Source: Parcubacteria group bacterium
Lineage (GTDB): Bacteria; Patescibacteriota; Microgenomatia; UBA1400; PJMF01
Assembly (NCBI GenBank): GCA_943350175.1
Contig: CALQZX010000001.1
Coordinates: 97,702-161,701, forward strand
Reading direction: 5' to 3'
DNA: 64,000 nt
Shown: positions 51,075 through 62,862 of the stretch, in pieces
Layout: every line of letters starts with the position of its first letter
Numbering within the stretch: position 1 is the first letter of the stretch
Translations under genes and position numbers: made by a program
Notes under the pieces: generated by a model
What the model was told of the DNA's origin: nothing
Database searches by the model: none
Seen by the model: only the letters and a program-made list of their open reading frames with translations

Positions 51075-51147
51075 GGGTCCGTAGCTCAGTCGGTAGAGCA
51101 GAAGCCTTTTAAGCTTTGTGTCGTGGGTTCGAGTCCCACCGGACTCA
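51075..51147 (+). tRNA. tRNA-Lys (anticodon TTT)
   Basis: GGGTCCGTAGCTCAGTCGGTAGAGCA, anticodon arm GAAGC-CTTTTAA-GCTTT, T-arm GTGGGTTCGAGTCCCAC, acceptor CGGACTC-A. Confidence 0.85.
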
Positions 51148-53037
51148 CAAGTTAGCAGCATTTGCCCCGAACTGTTTCAGTTCGTCTTCATGCAAAACCT
51201 TTTTTCTTGCCATGTTGATAAGGATTTGCTGCGGCAGTCGCAGATAAATATCAATTTCGTACGGAACCATTTGTTCTCGATCATTTAGTCCAATTGTCCC
51301 TGCTGTGTGGAGAGTCATTCCAGATATCTGCAGTTTATTCTCAGGCCTATTACTGTAATTGCCGGTTTTTCTTCTTCCTGGAATCTTGTCAGAAGGATCG
51401 GGTCTTCTAGAATGAACAACAATGCCATCGATAATCATGTGAAGAATCTCAAAGATTTTTTCTCTGTCCTCTTGGATATCATTGAGTTTGTCGACATATT
51501 TTTGAGAAAATAGCTCAAGTGAAATCTCATAGGCTTGAAGATTTGCTTTTTGACCAATTTGTAATTCCAACTTTTCTTGTTCCTCGGACAACCTTTTTTG
51601 TTCCAAGTCATAATCTTTCACTTTAGCAAGCATGGTGTCGGTATCAATAATTCCAAACTCATGCTGTTCTTTGACTCTACTAATCATGTTTGGAAGTGCA
51701 TTTAGCAACCTACGGAGTTCATCTCTTCTATCTCTGAGTCTGGTGAGCTCAATTTTATTGGACTCAAGTTCCCTTTGATAGTCAAATACTGACTTTGGAT
51801 CTAGCAAAAGATTTCGCACATACTCAACAACAAATTCCTCAATTTTATCTGCTGGCAAGGGCAAAACATTGCATGGATAGCTTGTCTTTCGAGCATTTCT
51901 GTTGCCACATTTGTAATAATGACTAAACCGACCAGTTGATTTGACTTTTTTTCGATCGCCGACCCATGTAGAAAGATCTCTCATTAGCATGGTTTTTCGA
52001 CAATGACTGCATCTAAGCAATCCGCCAAGTAAATAAACATTTTTACTGTTTTGAGGTAAAGCTATAACCTTGTTGTATTTTGGTTTCTCCTTGAGAGAAT
52101 TTGCTGCCATTTTGAACAAATAATCATCAATGATAGCCTGATGTCTATGTGGAGATAGTTTCCATTTACTTGGTTCAACTCTTTTGCCATTTTCATTTTT
52201 CCCATAGTAATATTTGCCAAGATAGACCTCATCTTGAAGAATCTTTGCGACTACATTCGCTCGCCAAAAATATGCGGTGTTTTTCTTTTGACTTGTTCCT
52301 CGTCTTTTTTTGTAAAAAACAGCGGAGGCCTCTGGTGAAAGAACTTTTTTGGACGCTAAGTGATCAGCGATTTGTTGCTCAGTGTAATTCTGGGTAACAA
52401 ACATGTCGAAGATATTGCGTATAACTAGAGCTTCTTCTTCTAAAATCTCTATTGTTCCATCCAACTTCTTTTTGTAACCAAAAGGAGGGGCACTTCCCAT
52501 CCACACACCTTGCTTTACCGCTTCTCTTCGCCCATCTTGTGTTCTTAGTTTTGTGGTTTCAATTTCAAGCTCAGCAATGACTCCAATAATTCCAAGCATG
52601 GCTTTACCAAAAGGAGTTGATGTATCAATACTCTCATTTGCCGATAAAAACTCAACCTTATTTTTCTCAAGATAGCCAATAATATTGAGCAGTTCCTGCA
52701 ACCTTCTGGCAAAACGATCAATTTTGTACACAACTACTAGATCAAAAGGCTTTTTGTCGCTGTTGGCTAGTTCTTCAGTGAGACGGCGAAATGCTGGACG
52801 CTCAAGCATTGGGGTAGTTCCACTAATGTCGTCCTTGAAGATAAACTTATCATCAACTATATATTTATCTCTGCCATCGGGAAATTTCTTTGATTGAACA
52901 AGACTCCTTATGGCTTGCTCTTGTAAGTCCAGACCATACTTTTCCTTCTGATCCTCAGTAGATACCCTCAAGTAAAGGGCTACTCGCTTCTGCTCATTAT
53001 CTTCATTATTCATTTTTTGCATTCTTCTAATAAACAA
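51145..53037 (-). CDS. Large serine recombinase (site-specific integrase/resolvase family)
   Basis: 630 aa. N-terminal resolvase catalytic domain VALYLRVSTEDQ (Ser nucleophile), recombinase domain, Cys-rich zinc ribbon (CSHCRK...CGNRNARKTSYPC), coiled-coil. The stop codon overlaps the last 3 nt of tRNA-Lys(TTT). Confidence 0.85.
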   Translation of the reverse strand: MFIRRMQKMNNEDNEQKRVALYLRVSTEDQKEKYGLDLQEQAIRSLVQSKKFPDGRDKYIVDDKFIFKDDISGTTPMLERPAFRRLTEELANSDKKPFDLVVVYKIDRFARRLQELLNIIGYLEKNKVEFLSANESIDTSTPFGKAMLGIIGVIAELEIETTKLRTQDGRREAVKQGVWMGSAPPFGYKKKLDGTIEILEEEALVIRNIFDMFVTQNYTEQQIADHLASKKVLSPEASAVFYKKRRGTSQKKNTAYFWRANVVAKILQDEVYLGKYYYGKNENGKRVEPSKWKLSPHRHQAIIDDYLFKMAANSLKEKPKYNKVIALPQNSKNVYLLGGLLRCSHCRKTMLMRDLSTWVGDRKKVKSTGRFSHYYKCGNRNARKTSYPCNVLPLPADKIEEFVVEYVRNLLLDPKSVFDYQRELESNKIELTRLRDRRDELRRLLNALPNMISRVKEQHEFGIIDTDTMLAKVKDYDLEQKRLSEEQEKLELQIGQKANLQAYEISLELFSQKYVDKLNDIQEDREKIFEILHMIIDGIVVHSRRPDPSDKIPGRRKTGNYSNRPENKLQISGMTLHTAGTIGLNDREQMVPYEIDIYLRLPQQILINMARKKVLHEDELKQFGANAANL

Positions 53038-53453: not shown

Positions 53454-53599
53454 TGTGCCAATTATAACTTTTCAATCAAACTTCTTCTTGGGCAAACTAG
53501 CACGATAGTGCGAAATTGCATTTGGGTAGTGAAACCTACGGAAGTATAATGGTAAGAATCGCATAAAAAGCGGGAATACAAGAATGTAAGAATAACGCC

Positions 53600-55969
53600 A
53601 TGGACAAGTCAATCTTTTCAGAACGAGATATTTGCACAAAATATATAGCCCCCGCTTTGGTTCGTTCTGGATGGAATGTTGAAACTCAAATTCGTGAAGA
53701 AGTTTTTTTCACTAAAGGAAGAATTATTGTCCAAGATAAAGTGGTAAAGCGAGGTCAGCCTAAGAGAGCCGACTATATTCTCTACCATAAACCAAACCTA
53801 CCACTTGCCATAATTGAGGCTAAAGACAACAATCATTCGGTTGGTGCAGGCATGCAACAAGGCCTTGAATACGCTGAAACTCTCGATATTCCATTTGTTT
53901 TCAGTTCTAACGGAGACGGCTTCATTTTTCATGACAGGACCGGCTTATCAAGTGAGATTGAAAAACAACTGAGTCTTGATGAATTTCCAACTCCTCAAGA
54001 ACTCTATCAGAAATTTCTTCGTTGGAAACACATTACCCCTGAAGAGGAAGCTATCGTCACTACAGACTATCATGTGGATATTCGTGGTAAGGGACCTCGT
54101 TATTACCAGCAAATAGCCATCAACCGCACGATTGAGGCTGTTGCCAACGACCAAGACAGGATTTTATTAGTCATGGCTACCGGCACAGGTAAAACTTACA
54201 CCGCCTTTCAAATCATGTGGCGACTTTGGAAGTCACGATCAAAGAAACGCATTCTTTTCTTAGCTGATCGTAACATTCTCATTGATCAAGCAAAAAACAA
54301 CGACCTCATTCCTTTTGGTGACAAATTGACTAAGATTACCAATCGTCATGTTGATAAATCTTATGAAGTTTACATGTCACTCTATCAAGCTGTCACTGGC
54401 ACTGAGGAGGAAAGCAATATCTACAAACAATTTAGTCCTGACTTCTTTGACCTCATTATTATTGATGAGTGTCACCGAGGTAGTGCCAGAGCTGACTCGG
54501 CTTGGCGAGAAATTCTTGAATACTTTGGCAATGCAACTCAGATCGGCCTGACTGCTACACCAAAGGAAACCAAAGATGTCTCAAATATCGATTATTTTGG
54601 TGAGCCAATCTACACCTACTCACTCAAGCAAGGTATTGATGATGGCTTTTTGGCCCCTTACAAAGTCGTCCGAATTACCATTGACCGAGATGTTGAGGGT
54701 TACAGACCTGAAAATCATAAAGTTGATGTCTACGGGCGTGAAATTCCTGACGAAGTCTACTACGGTCCTGACTTTGATCGAACGCTCATTATTGATGATC
54801 GCACTAAATTAGTGGCCAAAAAAGTAGTTGAATATCTGCGAGAAACAGATCCCTTCTCCAAGACAATCATTTTTTGTATTGATGTGGAACATGCGGAACG
54901 CATGCGGCAGGCTCTTGTCAATGAAGCTCAAGATTTGTATCAGCAGAATCCTCATTATGTGATGAGAATTACTGGTGATGATGAGGCCGGTAAGGCTGAA
55001 TTAGACAACTTTATTGATCCAGAAAGTAAATATCCCGTTATTGTTACCACTTCCAAACTTTTGACTACTGGCGTGGATGTTCAGACCTGTAAAGTAGTCG
55101 TGCTCGATGCCAATATCAACTCAATGACTGAGTTCAAGCAGATTGTTGGTCGAGGCACTCGCCTGAGAGAAGACTTTGGTAAATATTTTTTCACCATTAT
55201 GGATTTCCGCAACGCTACTGATAATTTTGCTGATCCGAACTTTGACGGTATGCCTGAATCAATTTACGAGCCAGTGATGCCCGCTGAAATCGAGGGAAAA
55301 TTGAAAGAGGAAGCATCTATCTCTACCGCAAGTGAAATCCTATATGATCCAACTGAACCAGCAGATCCACTGGTACTCAGGGAGAATGGCCAGCCATATA
55401 CAACCAGTCGTAAATATCAAGTTCGTGATGTTTTAGTCAAAGTTACAGGTGAACAAGTTCAATTTCTTGATGAGCAAGGTAAGTTGATTGCTCAGAATTT
55501 GGAAGAGTTTTGCCAGAGTAATCTCAAGAATGTCTATCCTGAGCCAGAAGATTTTGTTCATGCTTGGAACCAATCAGATAACAAGAAGTTCTTACTATCA
55601 GAACTTGAGGTTCAAGGTATATTTGTTGAAGAACTGCTTGATAGCATAGATAAAAAACTTGATGAGTATGATTTGATTCTCAAGGTGGGATATGGGAAAG
55701 AAGCCAAAACTCGACAACAAAGAAGAACTAAAATCAATCTTTCTCAGATTCTGCCAAACCTTTCACCTTTGCAATCAAATCTAATCGAAGTTCTACTTGG
55801 AATCTACGAGGCTGAAGGTGTTTCTCATATTGAGGATGTAGCGGTTCTAGAAGTCGGAGCTTTTGCCCAATTTGGTCGTCCTTACGAGATTCTCACTCAA
55901 GTGTTTACCAATCGTGAAGAGTATGCTGAGGCGGTTCAAACAATTATCAAAGCACTCTATCAGGAATAA
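53600..55969 (+). CDS. hsdR: Type I restriction enzyme R subunit
   Basis: 789 aa. N-terminal PD-(D/E)xK nuclease (ADYILYH...IIEAKD), SF2 helicase motifs (ATGTGKT, DECHRG, LTATP, QIVGRGTR). Confidence 0.9.
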   Translation: MDKSIFSERDICTKYIAPALVRSGWNVETQIREEVFFTKGRIIVQDKVVKRGQPKRADYILYHKPNLPLAIIEAKDNNHSVGAGMQQGLEYAETLDIPFVFSSNGDGFIFHDRTGLSSEIEKQLSLDEFPTPQELYQKFLRWKHITPEEEAIVTTDYHVDIRGKGPRYYQQIAINRTIEAVANDQDRILLVMATGTGKTYTAFQIMWRLWKSRSKKRILFLADRNILIDQAKNNDLIPFGDKLTKITNRHVDKSYEVYMSLYQAVTGTEEESNIYKQFSPDFFDLIIIDECHRGSARADSAWREILEYFGNATQIGLTATPKETKDVSNIDYFGEPIYTYSLKQGIDDGFLAPYKVVRITIDRDVEGYRPENHKVDVYGREIPDEVYYGPDFDRTLIIDDRTKLVAKKVVEYLRETDPFSKTIIFCIDVEHAERMRQALVNEAQDLYQQNPHYVMRITGDDEAGKAELDNFIDPESKYPVIVTTSKLLTTGVDVQTCKVVVLDANINSMTEFKQIVGRGTRLREDFGKYFFTIMDFRNATDNFADPNFDGMPESIYEPVMPAEIEGKLKEEASISTASEILYDPTEPADPLVLRENGQPYTTSRKYQVRDVLVKVTGEQVQFLDEQGKLIAQNLEEFCQSNLKNVYPEPEDFVHAWNQSDNKKFLLSELEVQGIFVEELLDSIDKKLDEYDLILKVGYGKEAKTRQQRRTKINLSQILPNLSPLQSNLIEVLLGIYEAEGVSHIEDVAVLEVGAFAQFGRPYEILTQVFTNREEYAEAVQTIIKALYQE

Positions 55970-55971
55970 TT

Positions 55972-57396
55972 ATGTCACTCGGAAGCAAAGTCAAAACAAT
56001 TCAAAACATTATGCGTCAGGATACTGGTGTTGATGGTGACGCTCAGCGTATTTCCCAACTTGGTTGGCTAATATTTCTCAAAATCTTTGATGACCGAGAA
56101 AAAGAGCTGAGTACCATGAACCTCGGCTATGTTTCTGCCGTGCCTGAGGGCTTGAAGTGGCGAGATTGGGCGGCAAATCCAGAAGGCATGACTGGTGATG
56201 AGCTACTCAATTTCATCAACAATCAGCTATTCCCAAAACTCAAGAACCTAGAGGTCAGAGAAAATGACAAAAGGACCCTGATTTTACAAGCAGTGTTCTC
56301 TGATTCTTTCAATTACATGAAATCAGGCACTCTGCTGAGACAGATCATCAATGAACTCAATGATATTGATTTCAAGTCATCCAAAGATCGTCACATGTTC
56401 AATGATGTTTATGAACAAATTCTAAAAGACTTGCAAAGTGCTGGCAATGCCGGTGAGTTTTATACACCCAGACCAGTAACTCAATTTATTGTGGAGATGA
56501 TAAATCCACAGCTTGGTGAAAAAGTTTTTGATCCAGCTTGTGGTACTGGTGGATTCTTGACCTCAGTAATTGACCACCTGAGAAAAGATCAGATCAAAAC
56601 TGCTGAAGATGAAAAGATCTTAGCTGAGAGTCTGTATGGCATTGAGAAAAAGCCCCTCCCTCACTTGCTTTGCACAACTAACTTGATTTTACATGGGATT
56701 GATGACACTTCTAACATTATCAGGGGTAATTCACTAACTAGACCACTTAGAGATTACACAGAGTTAGATCGCATGAATGTAGTAGTAACCAACCCACCAT
56801 TTGGTGGTGTTGAGGAAGATGGTATTGAACTCAACTTCCCTAAGAAATTCCAGACTAAAGAAACGGCTGATCTTTTCTTGGTCCTAATTATTCATTTGCT
56901 AAAGAATGGTGGTCGAGCTGGCCTAGTTCTTCCTGACGGAACACTCTTTGGTGAGGGCGTAAAAACCGCCATCAAGGAGAAACTGCTTGAAGAATGTAAT
57001 CTGCACACTATTATCCGTCTGCCTGAAGGCGTTTTCTCACCTTACACAGGTATCAGAACAAATCTCTTGTTTTTTACCAAAGGTGAGCCAACTAGTGAAG
57101 TGTGGTTTTATGAACATAAGTATCCAGAAGGATATAAATCCTATTCAAAAACCAAACCAATGTCACTCAAGGAGTTTGATGCTGAAAGAGAATGGTGGAA
57201 TGATCGCTTGGAGGGTGAAAATAGCTGGAAAGTCAGTATTGATGAGCTGCGGGCAAGAGATTTCAATTTAGATATCAAGAATCCAAGTAAATCAATGCGG
57301 CATAGCTCAAAGAATCTAGAGGACATATTGTCTCAATTTGAGGAGAATCTTGACGAGATTCACAGTATTTTTGACTCATTAGTAAAGGAACTATAG
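55972..57396 (+). CDS. hsdM: Type I restriction-modification system DNA methyltransferase subunit
   Basis: 474 aa. N6-adenine MTase motifs DPACGTGGFL (motif I) and NPPFG (motif IV). Confidence 0.9.
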   Translation: MSLGSKVKTIQNIMRQDTGVDGDAQRISQLGWLIFLKIFDDREKELSTMNLGYVSAVPEGLKWRDWAANPEGMTGDELLNFINNQLFPKLKNLEVRENDKRTLILQAVFSDSFNYMKSGTLLRQIINELNDIDFKSSKDRHMFNDVYEQILKDLQSAGNAGEFYTPRPVTQFIVEMINPQLGEKVFDPACGTGGFLTSVIDHLRKDQIKTAEDEKILAESLYGIEKKPLPHLLCTTNLILHGIDDTSNIIRGNSLTRPLRDYTELDRMNVVVTNPPFGGVEEDGIELNFPKKFQTKETADLFLVLIIHLLKNGGRAGLVLPDGTLFGEGVKTAIKEKLLEECNLHTIIRLPEGVFSPYTGIRTNLLFFTKGEPTSEVWFYEHKYPEGYKSYSKTKPMSLKEFDAEREWWNDRLEGENSWKVSIDELRARDFNLDIKNPSKSMRHSSKNLEDILSQFEENLDEIHSIFDSLVKEL

Positions 57397-57398
57397 CT

Positions 57399-57947
57399 AT
57401 GAAATACAAATTAGGCGACTTCTTCAAACAGAGAAAAGGGTTCATTCAAATTGAAGATACTAAGGAGTATAAACGCTGCCGTTTGCAGGTTAGAGCTCGA
57501 GGTATTGTCTTGAGAGATATTGTCCCCGGATCAAAAATAAAAACAAAAAAGCAGCAGGTTTGTCTAGCTGGTGATTTTGTTGTGGCTGAGATCGATGCAA
57601 AAGTTGGAGGTTTTGGTTTTATCCCAAATGAACTTGATGGTTCTATTGTTAGCAGCCATTACTTTATTTTTGAAATAGATGAAAGCACCGTCTTAGCAGA
57701 ATATTTTGCTCTAATAATAAAATTAGAAGCTTTTCAAAGCAAATTTCGTGCAAGAGGTTCAACAAATTATGCAGCAATCAGGCCACATGACTTTTTGAAC
57801 ATTGATGTGGAAATTCCCAATCCAACAAAACAAACTGAAATAGTAAACAAGTACAAAAAAGCATCCAAACTAGAAGAAAAAATAAAAAACCAACTTGAGC
57901 TTCTTGATGAATTGAAAGAGAAAATTATCATCTATGAACAGGAATAG
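57399..57947 (+). CDS. hsdS: Type I R-M specificity subunit, half-size (single target-recognition domain)
   Basis: 182 aa, about half the usual HsdS length. One TRD followed by a conserved coiled-coil region (EIPNPTKQTEIVNKYKKASKLEEKIKNQLELLDELKEKII). Confidence 0.7.
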   Translation: MKYKLGDFFKQRKGFIQIEDTKEYKRCRLQVRARGIVLRDIVPGSKIKTKKQQVCLAGDFVVAEIDAKVGGFGFIPNELDGSIVSSHYFIFEIDESTVLAEYFALIIKLEAFQSKFRARGSTNYAAIRPHDFLNIDVEIPNPTKQTEIVNKYKKASKLEEKIKNQLELLDELKEKIIIYEQE

Positions 57948-59685
57948 GGTAAAAAAAATATTTATCAGAAATTTCAGAAGTATTGGTCCAGAAGGTATAT
58001 GGATTGATTTGAATCATATTGTTGTTCTGGTTGGTCAAAATAACAGCGGAAAAAGCTCAATTCTTCGTGCCTTGAAGGTTATTACAGAAGGTGAAGGATC
58101 ATCTAAACTCACAATTGAAGACTTCCACCAAAACAAATTGGATAATTGCCCTGAGGTAATTTTGGAAACTTATGTTTTTGATCCAGCACTTCCAGGTACA
58201 GAGTGGATTATCACCGAACCAACAGGTGAACAATTTGTTAGAGAACGATGGCTTTGGGCTCTTCCAGATGTCTCACCAGTGAGAGTTGGTTGGAATCAGT
58301 CAAAAAATGGTTGGGCTTCTGCAGATACTAAGGAAGAAAAGTACCCATGGGGACCAGACAATATCGCTATGGCTCGAAGACCAGAGCCTCACGAAGTAAA
58401 CCCATTTGATGATCCAGAAAAGCAAGCTAATGAGATTGTAAAAATTCTCAATGCCCTGGTAAAAAGCAAGATATCTGCTCTTATATCTGACGACCAACTA
58501 AAACAGGAAAGAAAATACCAACAAATTGTTGATGAATTGAAGGTTCTAAGAAAAAGCGTGGTTGATGATGCCAAAGTTGAAATCGAAGAAATTGAGACGA
58601 AGCTCAATGATCTTGTTTCATCAGTTTTTGCTGGAAATAAAATTGAATTTGATCCACAACCTGAAGAAAAAGTTGAGGATGCTGTTCAAGCTGCACTAAT
58701 CAACATGAATGCTCAGCTCAAAATGGGGCCAGAAGGTGGTTATAAAGGAACGATTGAAAAACAAGGAAGTGGAGCTCGAAGAACATTGCTGTGGATTGCA
58801 TTGAAATTGACAGTCGAATTAGGTGGCGGAAAGAAAAAATCGAGAGGCAAAAAAGCTGAAACGAGTGTTGTTGAAGATCGTCCTCATGTTCTTTTGTTGA
58901 ACGAGCCAGAGATTTGTTTGCATCCAAGTGCGGTTAGAGACGCAAGAGATACTTTATACAAACTACCAGAGACCGGTAATTGGCAAGTTATGGTCACATC
59001 TCATTCGCCAATATTTATTGATATATCAAAAGATAATACAACCATCGTTAGAGTAGAAAAAGATATTACTGGAAAAGTATCAAGTGAAACAGTATTTCGT
59101 CCTGACTCAGCTCAGCTGACAGACGAAGAAAAGCTTCAATTGAAGTTGCTAAATATTTTTGATCCATATTTTGCAGAATTCTTCTTCGCGAAGCACATTA
59201 TTGTTGTAGAGGGTGATACTGAATACTCAGCATTTCGCTACCTACTTCAAGAAAAAGGTAATAGCTCAGTTCATATTCTGAGAGCGAGAGGTAAGGCCCC
59301 AATTGCTACGATTATAAAAATTCTCAATCATTTCAAATCAAGTTATGCTGTTTTGCATGATAGTGACACTCCAAAGTTAGATTCAGGAAAGAAAAACCCA
59401 GCTTGGACCGTAAATCAGTCTATTTTAGATGTGTTCTCTTCAAGAGAGTCTGGAACAAAAGCTCGGCTAGTAGCTAGCGTTCCTGATTTTGAACGAGCAT
59501 GTTTTGGTAGACAAGTGGAAAACGACAAGCCATATGAAACCATTACTGAACTATCTAATAGTCCAACTATGAAAGCTAGAACTGAACAGCTGCTAGACGC
59601 ATTGATTCAATTTGATAAGCCTTTGCCTGTTGGATTTATTGAATGGGGAAATCTTTCTGATCTTGAAAAGCAAGCTACAAAATAA
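57934..59685 (+). CDS. OLD-family nuclease (N-terminal ABC ATPase + C-terminal TOPRIM)
   Basis: 583 aa. Walker A VLVGQNNSGKSS, signature-like QGSGARRTL, Walker B/D-loop HVLLLNEPE, H-loop MVTSHSP. C-terminal TOPRIM with IIVVEGDTEYSAF (Glu) and VLHDSDTPK (DxD). Confidence 0.75.
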   Translation: MNRNRVKKIFIRNFRSIGPEGIWIDLNHIVVLVGQNNSGKSSILRALKVITEGEGSSKLTIEDFHQNKLDNCPEVILETYVFDPALPGTEWIITEPTGEQFVRERWLWALPDVSPVRVGWNQSKNGWASADTKEEKYPWGPDNIAMARRPEPHEVNPFDDPEKQANEIVKILNALVKSKISALISDDQLKQERKYQQIVDELKVLRKSVVDDAKVEIEEIETKLNDLVSSVFAGNKIEFDPQPEEKVEDAVQAALINMNAQLKMGPEGGYKGTIEKQGSGARRTLLWIALKLTVELGGGKKKSRGKKAETSVVEDRPHVLLLNEPEICLHPSAVRDARDTLYKLPETGNWQVMVTSHSPIFIDISKDNTTIVRVEKDITGKVSSETVFRPDSAQLTDEEKLQLKLLNIFDPYFAEFFFAKHIIVVEGDTEYSAFRYLLQEKGNSSVHILRARGKAPIATIIKILNHFKSSYAVLHDSDTPKLDSGKKNPAWTVNQSILDVFSSRESGTKARLVASVPDFERACFGRQVENDKPYETITELSNSPTMKARTEQLLDALIQFDKPLPVGFIEWGNLSDLEKQATK

Positions 59686-59698
59686 TGAAAGGATTCAA

Positions 59699-59911
59699 AT
59701 GCAAAGAATACCAGTAAATTCATCAAATATCGCTGCGATAGGTTACGATCCAGACTCAAGTATTTTAGAGATTGAATTCAATGATGGAAGTATTTACCAA
59801 TATTTTGGGGTTCCTGAGTTGGTCCATCAAGAATTGATGGATGCTGGATCACATGGAAAGTATTTTGCCCAGAATATCAAAAATGATTATGAATATAAAA
59901 AGGTAAACTAA
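59699..59911 (+). CDS. KTSC domain-containing protein
   Basis: From MQRIPVNSSNIAAIGYDPDSSILEIEFNDGSIYQYFGVPELVHQELMDAGSHGKYFAQNIKNDYEY, matching the KTSC consensus. Good RBS (AAAGGA) 8 nt upstream. Confidence 0.6.
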   Translation: MQRIPVNSSNIAAIGYDPDSSILEIEFNDGSIYQYFGVPELVHQELMDAGSHGKYFAQNIKNDYEYKKVN

Positions 59912-59915
59912 TCTT

Positions 59916-60962
59916 ATGCCAAACATCATCTCTCTTGATCAAAAAACCAAAAGAACAAAAGTCAGTCAGTTTGAATTAGACAATGAAATTGTCTTCAATT
60001 ATTTCGATCGGTTATCCTCTGATCAGCGAGATGAGGCCTTTTTTCGGGCAATATACATTGGCGTTTTAGCATTGATGGAAGATAGATTATCTGCATTCTT
60101 GGCTAAAACTCAAAACGAACTGGGCACGCAGCTTGAAAGTCTCAAAATGATCTTTGAGATGAAGAAAGAAATCTTCTTCAAAACTGCTGTCAAAGGTATG
60201 ATTGCTGAAGACGACATTGCCAATTACTTGAATAGCTATTTTCTGGACAAGAAACTTCGTGACAAAGCAGAACTCACAGGAACCGAGGCTGGCGTAATTT
60301 CAGGCAATAAAACAGGTGATATTGTTTGTTCGGTGGATGGTGACGAGAAAAAACGAGTGGCCATTGAAATCAAGTTCGATAAGTCTATGAAGCTTGGTGA
60401 TATTAGTGACAAGGATATTTTTACTAAAAAACAAGATACTGCTTGGAGTCAGCTAATTGAGGCTTCTGCTAACAGAGGCACACAAGTCGCAATTATTGTT
60501 TTCGATAGGTCCTTAGTTGATGGGAGTATCCTCAAATTCACTGATTCCGTTGGTTTTATCTCTGGTGTTGGGTTTGTTGTGGTTGTTGATTCTCAAAAAG
60601 GTGATTATTCAAACTTAGTTGTTGCCTATAACTTGGCTAGAGACATAGTTCTTCATGCCAAGCAACTTGATTTGGATGATAAGGTGCTAACCATGCTTTG
60701 TAAACGAATGATCAGGGATATTGACATGCTGCTTGGTATTCGCCAGCTTGTGGTCCAAAACATCGAAACAAGCCAAGAAATAATGGCAAGAGTTCAAAAA
60801 TCATTACTACTAATGGAATTCAATCAAGAGTACCTAAGCAAATTCCTAAAGGATGGCAAGCTGTCTCAAACTGATTTACTGGCTTTTTACTCAGGTGAAG
60901 ATGTGAAAGCTAAGTACAGTGCGATTCAGCCTGAAATTGATTCCTTGCTCAGCAGTAACTAG
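59916..60962 (+). CDS. Hypothetical protein with predicted PD-(D/E)xK nuclease motif
   Basis: 348 aa. Central GDIVCSVDGDEKKRVAIEIKFDK has the D...(E)xK arrangement of restriction-endonuclease-like folds. Helical N- and C-terminal regions are unknown. Confidence 0.45.
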   Translation: MPNIISLDQKTKRTKVSQFELDNEIVFNYFDRLSSDQRDEAFFRAIYIGVLALMEDRLSAFLAKTQNELGTQLESLKMIFEMKKEIFFKTAVKGMIAEDDIANYLNSYFLDKKLRDKAELTGTEAGVISGNKTGDIVCSVDGDEKKRVAIEIKFDKSMKLGDISDKDIFTKKQDTAWSQLIEASANRGTQVAIIVFDRSLVDGSILKFTDSVGFISGVGFVVVVDSQKGDYSNLVVAYNLARDIVLHAKQLDLDDKVLTMLCKRMIRDIDMLLGIRQLVVQNIETSQEIMARVQKSLLLMEFNQEYLSKFLKDGKLSQTDLLAFYSGEDVKAKYSAIQPEIDSLLSSN

Positions 60963-61213
60963 CGAGCTTCCCAAGAGAAGCCGCATTTTTGACAGACATA
61001 TAGATTCTTAGGCTTTTTGACCCAAAGCACCCTGACAAAAAACAGTGCTGTCATAGCATTTCTACGAAAAGCATCACCTGTTGATTCTTTGACTATGCTG
61101 AGATCCTTACTACCGCATTTTGGGCATGGTGGATTCTTGTAGGTCAATGACCAGTGCAGATACCATTTGAAGAATTTTTTGATTTTTTCCATCATACATT
61201 TGTCCCTTTCCAA
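60959..61213 (-). CDS. Small zinc-ribbon protein
   Basis: 84 aa. CPKCG...(~34 aa)...CQKCG, a four-Cys zinc ribbon. Confidence 0.45.
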   Translation of the reverse strand: MERDKCMMEKIKKFFKWYLHWSLTYKNPPCPKCGSKDLSIVKESTGDAFRRNAMTALFFVRVLWVKKPKNLYVCQKCGFSWEAR

Positions 61214-61310
61214 ACTACTTTGTTGAGTAGTCTATTTAGTTTGAAACACGAGCAATATTATATCAAAACTCTACGAGTTGTGCGTTTACGATTTGTCACA
61301 AATCTTCAGA

Positions 61311-61562
61311 ATGGGATCTATGCTGTCAAAGCAAAGATTTACCATTATCTTAGGAAAGAACATTCGCCGAATTCGAGAAGAAAAAGGCATGACTCAGGAT
61401 GAGCTATCAGCTGAATGTGGTTTTTATCGGACCTATATCAATTTGGTAGAAACAGCTAAAAGGACACCTTCAAGCTTTTCACTATACAGAATTGCTAGAG
61501 GCCTGAAGATTTCTGTATCAGAGCTTTACCCAAAGACAGTGGGCTCTGACTTAGAAGATTAG
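61311..61562 (+). CDS. XRE-family HTH transcriptional regulator
   Basis: From MGSMLSKQRFTIILGKNIRRIREEKGMTQDELSAECGFYRTYINLVETAKRTPS. The ORF-track start at 61278 is upstream of the family N-terminus. Confidence 0.6.
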   Translation: MGSMLSKQRFTIILGKNIRRIREEKGMTQDELSAECGFYRTYINLVETAKRTPSSFSLYRIARGLKISVSELYPKTVGSDLED

Positions 61563-61619: not shown

Positions 61620-61772
61620 GGGTAAAGGGGTGGGTAAAAGTTGGGTAAAAGCTAGGGGAAATTGCCTTTACTGGACTTTTTATGATTGTAATTGCAGGTA
61701 AAGGCTGGGTAAAATTCGACTTTTAGGAATTTATTGTTCGGTGAAAGGTCGGTGAAAGATCGGGAAAAACGG
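61620..61772. repeat. Iteron-like direct-repeat array (GGGTAAAAG-type, 11-bp period) upstream of the Panacea-domain gene
   Basis: GGGTAAAGGGG|TGGGTAAAAGT|TGGGTAAAAGC|TAGGGGAAATT, then GGTAAAGGCTGGGTAAAATT, then GGTGAAAGGTCGGTGAAAGATCGGGAAAAACGG. At least 7 copies of a GGKDAAAR core. Confidence 0.55.
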
Positions 61773-61883
61773 ATATTTCCTATTTTTGAATTTATACAAT
61801 CAGACTCTAGTCACTTTCATGAGATACACTTTGATGTAGTAGAATACATCCACATTAGCCCAATAATGGTCTATATTGTATAT

Positions 61884-62387
61884 ATGACAACTTTATCTGT
61901 AAAAAACACCAGTAAAGTTTTTCAAATTGCCAACTACTTCATCAAGAAGGCTCAAGAGGAAAACAAAGAACTAACAAATAAAAAGTTGCAAAAACTTTTA
62001 TATTATTCTCAAGCTTGGTCGGTTACTTTGAGGGACAAATCAATCTTCGAAGACAATATCGAGGCTTGGGTTCATGGTCCAGCTATTCGCTCTGTTTATC
62101 ATCGATTCTCAGATTTTGGGAGAGAAAACCTTGCTTCAAAAGTTGATGTCACTAGTGCTCATTTCGATGAAATAACTACTGATGACAAAGAGTTGCTAAA
62201 TAAAATCTGGGAAATTTATGGAAAATATACAGCTAATGACTTAGAGGTCATTTCGCACTCCGAATCCCCTTGGCAGGATGCTAGAGAAGGCTTGGAGCCT
62301 TACGAAGCTTCTGCAAATATAATCACAATTGAATCCATGAAACAATATTATGGGCAAAGACAAAAAGAAGCGAAAAGCTCTTCGTAA
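61884..62387 (+). CDS. Panacea (DUF4065, SocA/PanA-like) domain protein, putative antitoxin
   Basis: Start at MTTLSVKNTSKVFQIANYFIKK. KLQKLLYYSQAWSVTL...EAWVHGPAIRSVYHRF matches the DUF4065 consensus closely. Confidence 0.7.
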   Translation: MTTLSVKNTSKVFQIANYFIKKAQEENKELTNKKLQKLLYYSQAWSVTLRDKSIFEDNIEAWVHGPAIRSVYHRFSDFGRENLASKVDVTSAHFDEITTDDKELLNKIWEIYGKYTANDLEVISHSESPWQDAREGLEPYEASANIITIESMKQYYGQRQKEAKSSS

Positions 62388-62862
62388 AGATAAAGCTCAA
62401 GAGTTTCATCAAATTCAAAATACTATTCACGAAGAGAATGTTGAGAGAAGCATTAGGTCTAAATATAAAATTCCTGGCAGTGTCGCTATTCCAACTATTG
62501 AAGAAGATCTATTACAAAAGATTGGCCAGTCTTCATTTTCTCTAATATTTCATTATTACAATCATAATATTTGTGCCCTTACTAAGGTAAACACTACCTC
62601 TCAAGCTGAACAAATTGTAAAAATACTAGACAACCTATCAAAATCCACGCCAAATAATGTGCATGATTTGATTAGGGATAGTATCCACAGAAAAAATGCT
62701 CAGGGAGACTATGCTCGTCTTTTTAGCAGTTTGCCGGAAGATACTGAGATTATTCATGAGTCAAGTTTTTGTGATGAAGGAAGAGTTTTCTTTTTCACCA
62801 TAAATGGCATAAAACAAAATTTTGCCTGCGTAGTCTCAATCAACCCACTGCATCTTTCATAA
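62350..62862 (+). CDS. Hypothetical protein overlapping the Panacea gene 3' end, candidate toxin partner
   Basis: 170 aa. Single Met start with 38-nt overlap onto the upstream gene. Basic N-terminus (MGKDKKKRKALRKDK). No recognisable motif. Confidence 0.4.
   Translation: MGKDKKKRKALRKDKAQEFHQIQNTIHEENVERSIRSKYKIPGSVAIPTIEEDLLQKIGQSSFSLIFHYYNHNICALTKVNTTSQAEQIVKILDNLSKSTPNNVHDLIRDSIHRKNAQGDYARLFSSLPEDTEIIHESSFCDEGRVFFFTINGIKQNFACVVSINPLHLS

Follow-up and report, generated by a model that had tools for sequence, protein, structure and literature searches.

A stretch of 64,000 nucleotides (nt) from a Parcubacteria group bacterium (contig CALQZX010000001.1, positions 97,702 to 161,701, hereafter the window) carries a type I restriction-modification (R-M) operon that runs directly into genes for an OLD-family nuclease, a KTSC-domain protein and a predicted nuclease of 348 amino acids (aa), which we call P348. 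A preliminary description of the window had taken the last three genes for a candidate defence cassette built around OLD. Comparison with other genomes revealed that OLD-KTSC-P348 is a real conserved string, in which OLD fills a variable ATPase slot and P348, usually together with KTSC, is the constant element. OLD, KTSC, type I R-M and PD-(D/E)xK proteins are known kinds, while the P348 family and its rule-like position behind many defence ATPases are new. P348 is highly conserved, has no name in Pfam, NCBIfam or PADLOC, is represented by thousands of homologues across several phyla and systematically closes the operons of lone-gene-type OLD, of the two-gene SIR2-HerA system and of several candidate systems. 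With roughly even confidence, we take P348 to be a partner-agnostic PD-(D/E)xK DNA endonuclease, encoded by the terminal gene of ATPase-based defence operons, which would act as a second-stage effector on a generic DNA intermediate.

P348 and its genomic position

The P348 gene (59916..60962, + strand) encodes a predicted PD-(D/E)xK nuclease flanked by coiled coils. The protein of the window had no match in Pfam, NCBIfam, PADLOC or a PDB sequence search, and PADLOC-DB v2 contains no family for it or for its divergent relative. Against PDDEXK_15 (PF24608, cut-off 27 bits), scores of 30.0, 26.0 and 24.7 bits were obtained for P0063, P0080 and P0100, and window P348 gave no match at E<=10. An AlphaFold model based on 35 homologues reached a predicted local distance difference test (pLDDT) score of 80-92 for residues ~100-250, with long helices on either side, and its core shows the alpha-beta-beta-beta-alpha-beta arrangement, consistent with the PD-(D/E)xK fold suspected in the preliminary description. 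The D...EIK motif noted there also held, as D135 and E151-I-K153 lie on predicted core strands and are invariant in all 35 homologues; the invariant residues comprise E98 (helix 1), G134-D135 (strand 2) and E151-I-K153 (strand 3), and the motif strands of the model span residues 136-140 and 143-153. As modelled, P348 adopts the PD-(D/E)xK fold, keeps the E...D...ExK motif intact and extends long helical arms, and nuclease activity is predicted for it.

A word-indexed search retrieved 2524 homologues with 58-100% identity (the best 120, at 61-100%, are distributed across phyla), and an exhaustive profile search yielded only 336 clusters at 50% identity. Members were found in Patescibacteria, Bacteroidota, Ignavibacteria, Spirochaetes and Aminicenantes and on a Paracoccus plasmid, and window P348 itself has a 100% identical counterpart, a hypothetical protein, in a Candidatus Woesebacteria genome. 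The family is almost entirely cellular, not viral: P348 was detected in only 3 of 2.9 million viral contigs and had no match in the phage collection, on which grounds its interpretation as a phage gene was rejected. Among viral proteins, the best structural matches come from giant viruses and carry the annotation 'type IV Mrr domain' (E=5e-7), a likeness to Mrr-type type IV nucleases. P348 is also similar to DUF2130/RmuC proteins, since its PD-(D/E)xK core is flanked by long helices and DUF2130 adjoins the OLD subfamily of the window in three loci. However, hhalign gave a probability of only 0.2% between P348 and DUF2130, and no Pfam match to RmuC or Mrr was found.

Divergent relatives of P348 keep a GNKTGD...ExK core, and some of them have C-terminal SAP-like tails, as judged by eye. 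Three such P348-like proteins (337-352 aa), from GmrSD-containing and other defence islands, are followed by a protein of 647-659 aa (L170 8156-10099, L171 3232-5175, L173 3119-5098), which has no Pfam match and at most a weak PADLOC match to PDC-M33A (E=2e-4). This pair may be another unnamed two-gene unit.

The position of P348 was analysed in 80 genomic loci from Patescibacteria, Bacteroidota, Ignavibacteria, Spirochaetes, Aminicenantes and others, with the neighbouring open reading frames (ORFs) clustered. The upstream neighbour is co-directional with P348 in all 77 of 77 loci (median gap 2 nt; 20 nt or less in 70/77); the downstream neighbour is co-directional in 58/75, its median gap is 32 nt, and no particular gene recurs there. 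P348 is the closing, translationally close-coupled gene of these operons. The nearest large gene 5' of P348 belongs to SIR2-HerA in 29 loci, to OLD in 20 (PADLOC Old), to AAA_13/PDC-S06 (PrrC/RloC-like) in 9, to PDC-S46 in 7 and to LmuB-like SMC ATPases in 6 + 2, and the partner is non-OLD or not assignable in 60 of the 80. Of the 69 loci with 3 kb or more of sequence 5' of P348, 54 have a co-directional KTSC gene there, which abuts P348 directly in 29. In this check of gene neighbourhoods, as suggested in the preliminary description, the pairing of KTSC with P348 was conserved, but the conserved partner was not OLD in particular. The view of an OLD-specific cassette was not supported, because P348 follows at least six ATPase-based defence systems, OLD being one occupant among them, and because the OLD subfamily mostly lacks KTSC and P348.

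Several loci combine these elements. Stacked operons of the form SIR2-HerA-KTSC-c5-OLD-P348 occur three times (L055, L064, L071), and c5, c6 and a WYL protein (c58) are small recurrent companions of P348 operons. The evidence for c5 as a relative of KTSC was weak (hhalign E=1.4e-3, probability 17%) and the idea was not retained; no relation to KTSC was seen for c6. On an annotated Paracoccus plasmid, SIR2, DUF87, KTSC and a 'hypothetical protein' follow one another with 2-nt gaps, and the same four-gene set is carried by a high-GC viral contig. An apparent KTSC-P348 fusion (a 415-aa ORF in L082) was discarded because ORF calling had created it; the KTSC gene uses a different frame and stops one base short of the P348 ATG. 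Directly 3' of P348, Wadjet genes (JetA/DUF3375, then JetB- and JetC-sized genes) or a TOTE-system AEP-helicase were observed (L064 7026-9061, L078, L027, L058 7038-10001), neighbours that confirm the dense defence-island context of P348 loci.

No dependence of P348 on the type of partner was seen. Mean identity among P348 proteins is 76.8% for the same kind of partner and 76.7% for different kinds (permutation p=0.43), and copies that are 96-98% identical sit behind HerA, OLD, PDC-S46 and LmuB-like genes. Mean pairwise identity is 76% for P348, 52% for KTSC, 53% for HerA and 29% for the partner OLDs. The distances of P348 correlate weakly with those of OLD, HerA and KTSC (r=0.21-0.32, with r=0.32 for OLD, Mantel test), and those of HerA and KTSC correlate with each other at r=0.92. 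Co-evolution of P348 with its partner type was rejected from the permutation result and the weak Mantel coefficients. A role of KTSC as a P348-specific adaptor was dropped as well, because KTSC tracks HerA and its correlation with P348 is weak.

The exchange of partners can be located precisely. The KTSC/P348 module lies between hsdS and hsdR in four loci (L019, L028, L030 and L051), and the last three have a common backbone, hsdM-hsdS-KTSC-[X]-P348-DUF6998-PDDEXK_4-hsdR, where X is PDC-S46, OLD or WYL+AAA_13. Among the three, homologous DNA extends up to the KTSC stop codon and starts again with the P348 ATG; the ATPase cassette has been exchanged precisely between these two codons. All four are Flavobacteriaceae type I R-M operons with DUF6998 and a PDDEXK_4 protein between P348 and hsdR (L030 7023-8625; also L028, L051 and L019), and the hsdS-hsdR space in these operons holds five or six embedded genes.

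The OLD and KTSC proteins

The OLD gene (57934..59685, + strand) encodes 583 aa. An ABC ATPase joined to a TOPRIM domain with Glu and DxD had been read from the sequence, and this architecture was confirmed by matches to AAA_15 (2e-28), AAA_21 (1e-14), OLD-like_TOPRIM (7e-13) and DUF2813 (1e-9) in Pfam and by an alignment of 32 family sequences, in which Walker A, the signature motif, the H-loop, the TOPRIM Glu426 and D476xD478 are invariant. The PADLOC model 'Old' covers residues 5-555 (E=6e-77, 258 bits), compared with 92 bits for the best GajA model and 102 bits for the best AriA model. The best PDB match is 6p74, the Class 1 OLD of Thermus scotoductus (8.8e-16), followed by GajA (~4e-5) and the Eco8 OLD (6e-4), and the NCBIfam model retron_eff_Eco8 gave 47 bits against a cut-off of 250. 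OLD is a Class 1 protein by sequence. It is similar to P2 Old, the T. scotoductus OLD (6P74) and the Vibrio cholerae Class 1 OLD in being a single polypeptide of ~580 aa, in which an ABC ATPase at the N-terminus precedes a C-terminal TOPRIM with Glu and DxD, and in having no adjacent UvrD-like helicase, reverse transcriptase or AriB. The absence of the usual partners of OLD-type nucleases, already noted in the preliminary description, was borne out by Pfam and PADLOC scans of the neighbouring ORFs: hsdR was the only helicase among those scanned between 53 and 63 kb, which leaves no Gabija partner (GajB); no reverse-transcriptase domain was found in the neighbouring ORFs as a Class 3 partner; and the architecture is not that of PARIS, as a single 583-aa protein combines ATPase and TOPRIM and no DUF4435 gene is present.

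Class 1 OLDs are defined as lone genes that do not stand beside other defence genes, and those studied nick DNA and degrade it 5'->3' (PMC10568477). Most members of the subfamily of window OLD are lone genes, but window OLD itself is not: it differs from other Class 1 OLDs in lying inside a type I R-M operon, between hsdS, with which it overlaps, and the KTSC and P348 genes, and in having Asn for Asp in Walker B. A match to the stand-alone Class 1 type, combined with downstream neighbours that are not conserved, had been named in the preliminary description as the outcome that would speak against a new module; OLD does match that type, and KTSC and P348 are nonetheless conserved neighbours. 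The Walker B sequence is LLLNEPE (residues 320-326, window 58891-58911), in which Asn replaces the Mg-coordinating Asp and the catalytic Glu is kept. This Asn is common to window OLD and its four closest relatives (P0122-P0125), the other 27 of the 32 sequences have Asp, and the position is Asp or Glu in each of the other 18 OLDs linked to P348. With this substitution, ATP hydrolysis may be slower.

To the subfamily of window OLD belong 80 metagenomic loci with 44-50% identity to it. Almost no conserved neighbour was found in these loci; the flanking ORFs are singletons, and gaps are often 50-400 nt. About 75 of the 80 have neither KTSC nor P348 nearby, P348 being present in only two (L090 and L133); KTSC genes were found in the subfamily loci L128, L133 and L151. 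A Paenibacillus homologue also stands alone. A DUF2130 protein of 418-423 aa adjoins OLDs of this subfamily with gaps of 3-22 nt in two loci of the metagenomic set (L096 576-1838, L114 6754-8025) and in one genomic locus (L088 7760-9016). It consists of a zinc ribbon, a long coiled coil and a PD-(D/E)xK domain. A relationship to P348 was considered and none was detected, and DUF2130 provides Class 1-type OLDs with a second coiled-coil PD-(D/E)xK partner, unrelated to the first. Nothing relevant was found in the literature on PDDEXK_15, PF24608 or DUF2130.

The KTSC gene (59699..59911, + strand, 70 aa) had been named correctly, as its product matches PF13619 over the entire 58-position model (9e-28; 96.3 bits, cut-off 25), and AAAGGA precedes its ATG. 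The protein matches the stand-alone KTSC structures 7x8c and 4rgi, and also residues 630-695 of the 696-aa HerA of Paenibacillus sp. 453MF (8wiv, E=2.4e-19). Residues 576-696 of this HerA have been described as a 'C-terminal arm domain' that contacts the neighbouring subunit (PMC11472057); KTSC is the end of this arm (residues 630-695), and the name KTSC is absent from that paper. In L009 (3896-5995), a HerA-KTSC fusion of 699 aa precedes P348 and matches 8wiv from end to end (E=4e-209). KTSC is split off as a separate gene of 69-73 aa in most Bacteroidota loci. PIN_8-KTSC fusions of 321-323 aa were also observed near P348, directly 5' of it in L021 (938-1909) and L031 (5030-5995) and before OLD in L039 (3254-4219).

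SIR2-HerA (Gao 'Her', Paenibacillus sp. 453MF, 8WIV) is the commonest type of P348 partner, and window KTSC matches its HerA. It has been described with two genes and no PD-(D/E)xK gene, and the window differs from it in having OLD in its place. In the Paenibacillus sp. 453MF work, SIR2-HerA is treated as a working two-gene defence, and the construct used for phage challenge ends 486 nt after HerA (PMC11472057). The literature mentions KTSC in passing only, and the sole trace of the present arrangement is a remark from the Aravind laboratory on unpublished variants with HerA, KTSC and an endoDNase (PMC9503650).

Possible roles of the module

According to the reading that we favour, the ATPase/nuclease upstream of P348 would sense infection and nick or open DNA; OLD would do so here, by analogy with the studied Class 1 members. 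P348 would be a Mg2+-dependent DNA endonuclease that recognises no partner protein, and its substrate would be a generic product, for example nicked, end-exposed or otherwise non-self DNA. It could in this manner serve as a common second-stage executioner, co-expressed with whichever first-stage system lies upstream. KTSC may be a small nucleic-acid-binding or assembly domain, which forms part of the C-terminal arm in HerA and would accompany the module without being strictly required. Replacement of a degenerate TOPRIM by P348 was rejected: the partner OLDs retain intact Walker motifs, and all 19 of them keep the TOPRIM Glu and DxD, and therefore P348 would add to a nuclease instead of replacing one.

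Several points weigh against this reading. We infer cooperation between P348 and its partners from gene context, not from experiment or interaction prediction. The N-terminal part of the P348 model has low confidence. Inspection by eye found two partners that are not ABC proteins, BREX PglZ-BrxL (L003, 138-nt gap) and DUF262/GmrSD (L060, 37-nt gap). Divergent P348 members lie, without KTSC, beside other genes in defence islands that contain GmrSD, an SLFN-like helicase, methyltransferases, SNF2/PLD or SMC. The 486 nt 3' of HerA in the phage-challenge construct are too short for a full-length P348 gene; SIR2-HerA is treated there as a working defence and therefore does not need P348. Finally, the lack of co-variation between P348 and its partners fits an autonomous P348 equally well.

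Such an autonomous P348 is the main rival and has a real, if minor, share of the probability. The window would then hold three independent systems packed together, namely a type I R-M system, a stand-alone Class 1 OLD and P348 (with or without KTSC), the last being for example an Mrr-like modification-dependent or structure-specific enzyme that uses the 3' end of other defence operons to be expressed and transferred with them. Near-identical P348 copies behind unrelated systems, the stand-alone OLDs elsewhere in the subfamily, the short SIR2-HerA(KTSC) construct, the Mrr annotation of the giant-virus matches and the divergent members beside other genes in defence islands are all consistent with autonomy. 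However, an independent gene would be expected on either side and strand of its neighbours, whereas P348 is immediately downstream and co-directional throughout; the large upstream gene is a P-loop ATPase of the ABC, SMC or HerA classes in nearly all loci; and no reader domain for modified bases is evident in the P348 model.

A bolder form of the cooperative reading was also considered and appears doubtful to us. P348, often with KTSC, would be a universal 'plug-in' executioner without a partner-specific interface, triggered by a generic DNA lesion that OLD, SIR2-HerA, RloC/PrrC-like AAA_13, PDC-S46 and Lamassu-like SMC proteins alike would produce or expose. If true, this would imply a two-tier defence architecture, in which the KTSC|P348 junction is a dedicated slot for new first-tier cassettes.

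It is unlikely that KTSC and P348 are mainly the conserved flanks of a recombination hotspot, serving as homology arms for swaps of ATPase cassettes, with the P348 nuclease possibly promoting the exchange. In favour of such a hotspot, three loci of one R-M backbone lose and regain homology precisely at the KTSC stop and the P348 ATG, P348 is conserved at 76% against 29-53% for its neighbours, and OLD has diverged between the window and two related islands (58% identity, with flanks at 81-89% in L085 and L086). However, no terminal repeats or recombinase are tied to the module, many loci have no KTSC, and conservation at the protein level with invariant catalytic residues argues for selection on an enzyme and not merely on DNA homology. 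A dedicated, obligate three-component system of OLD, KTSC and P348, amounting to a new OLD 'class' comparable to Gabija or PARIS, is very improbable: the order is kept in three related islands, OLD is immediately 5' of P348 in a quarter of the genome loci (20/80) and another coiled-coil PD-(D/E)xK protein, DUF2130, adjoins the same OLD subfamily, but about 75 of the 80 subfamily loci lack both KTSC and P348, the P348-adjacent OLDs are only ~29% identical to each other and correlate with P348 at r=0.32, and the partner is not an assignable OLD in the other 60 genome loci.

Two known systems offer comparisons. PrrC in EcoprrI is a defence gene embedded in a type I R-M operon, and this anticodon nuclease is kept silent by the R-M complex. 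The window is similar in that an ATPase-based defence gene stands beside hsdS, co-directionally, in a type I R-M operon; it differs in that the embedded set ends with a conserved PD-(D/E)xK protein, and a link to the R-M complex is known for PrrC. Lamassu, in which LmuB occurs with variable LmuA effectors, combines one constant with one swappable component. P348 loci likewise have one highly conserved component with interchangeable partners, brought about by clean cassette exchange. Unlike in Lamassu, it is a predicted nuclease that stays constant, the components that vary are whole defence systems recognised in their own right, and P348 shows no co-variation with its partners that would suggest a shared interface.

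If P348 works with its partners, published reconstitutions may miss a component, and one enzyme would connect mechanistically unrelated defences via a DNA intermediate that they share. A P348 that works alone is a new and widespread candidate for single- or two-gene defence. Under either reading, the swapping of cassettes at KTSC-P348 is a clear case of modular assembly of defence operons, and the module can be used as genomic 'bait' for new ATPase-based defence genes.

The locus and related islands

The locus is a composite defence operon on a serine-recombinase island at tRNA-Lys, consisting of a type I R-M system, a Class 1-type OLD and the KTSC/P348 terminal module. The co-directional string starts with hsdR (53600..55969, +, 789 aa), followed by hsdM (55972..57396, +, 474 aa) and hsdS (57399..57947, +, 182 aa). 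The hsdR homologue in L084 (85% identical) has HSDR_N, ResIII, Helicase_C and EcoEI_R_C domains, and the hsdM homologue there (86% identical) has HsdM_N and N6_Mtase. HsdS was recognised by Pfam Methylase_S (6.5e-9) and PADLOC Specificity_I (1.9e-17), which makes the type I R-M set complete with HsdR, HsdM and a half-length HsdS. The ORFs from hsdS to P348 are spaced as first described: hsdS and OLD overlap by 14 nt, the gap between OLD and KTSC is 13 nt and that between KTSC and P348 is 4 nt. Scans for promoters and terminators gave counts no higher than in shuffled sequence and were uninformative on operon structure.

Window HsdS (57399-57947) has one target-recognition domain and a C-terminal helix, and its end lies inside the start of OLD. 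The HsdS proteins of related islands are 385-393 aa long and only 29-33% identical to it. Either this short HsdS is natural and would dimerise as a half-S subunit, or it was truncated during exchange of the downstream cassette.

The genes flanking the string also agreed with the preliminary description. P348 is followed by a convergent gene for an 84-aa zinc-ribbon protein (60959..61213, - strand), identified by weak zinc-ribbon matches, and by a gene for a 94-aa XRE/HTH_3 regulator (61278..61562, + strand; HTH_3 1.2e-11, PADLOC Control_protein 3.5e-14). The string from hsdR to P348 is bounded by a serine recombinase that abuts tRNA-Lys(ttt) (51075-51148) and by a second recombinase fragment at the end of the window.

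The closest relatives lie in recombinase islands of the same type and retain the order hsdR-hsdM-hsdS-OLD-KTSC-P348-(Zn-ribbon)-XRE. The proposed three-gene cassette stands insofar as OLD-KTSC-P348 keeps its order in these islands (L084-L086), but it is not specific to OLD. In L085 and L086, OLD is 58% identical to that of the window, compared with 89% for P348, 81% for KTSC and 85-87% for hsdR and hsdM. The zinc-ribbon and XRE genes are each 88-89% identical in L084-L086, and the zinc-ribbon gene, kept in these related islands, was not found in other P348 loci.

Some differences in gene content were also observed. An ORF of 139 aa with a DpnI domain lies directly 5' of hsdR in L084 (2613-3032) and L085 (600-1019), where the window has only 146 nt (53454-53599), and in L084 a DUF3800 gene and a 165-aa ORF are inserted straight after P348. 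Further downstream in the window (61734-62862), a SocA/Panacea-domain protein of 217 aa (PF13274, 1e-22) overlaps a 170-aa ORF that has no family match; the pair looks like a PanA-type antitoxin with an uncharacterised toxin.

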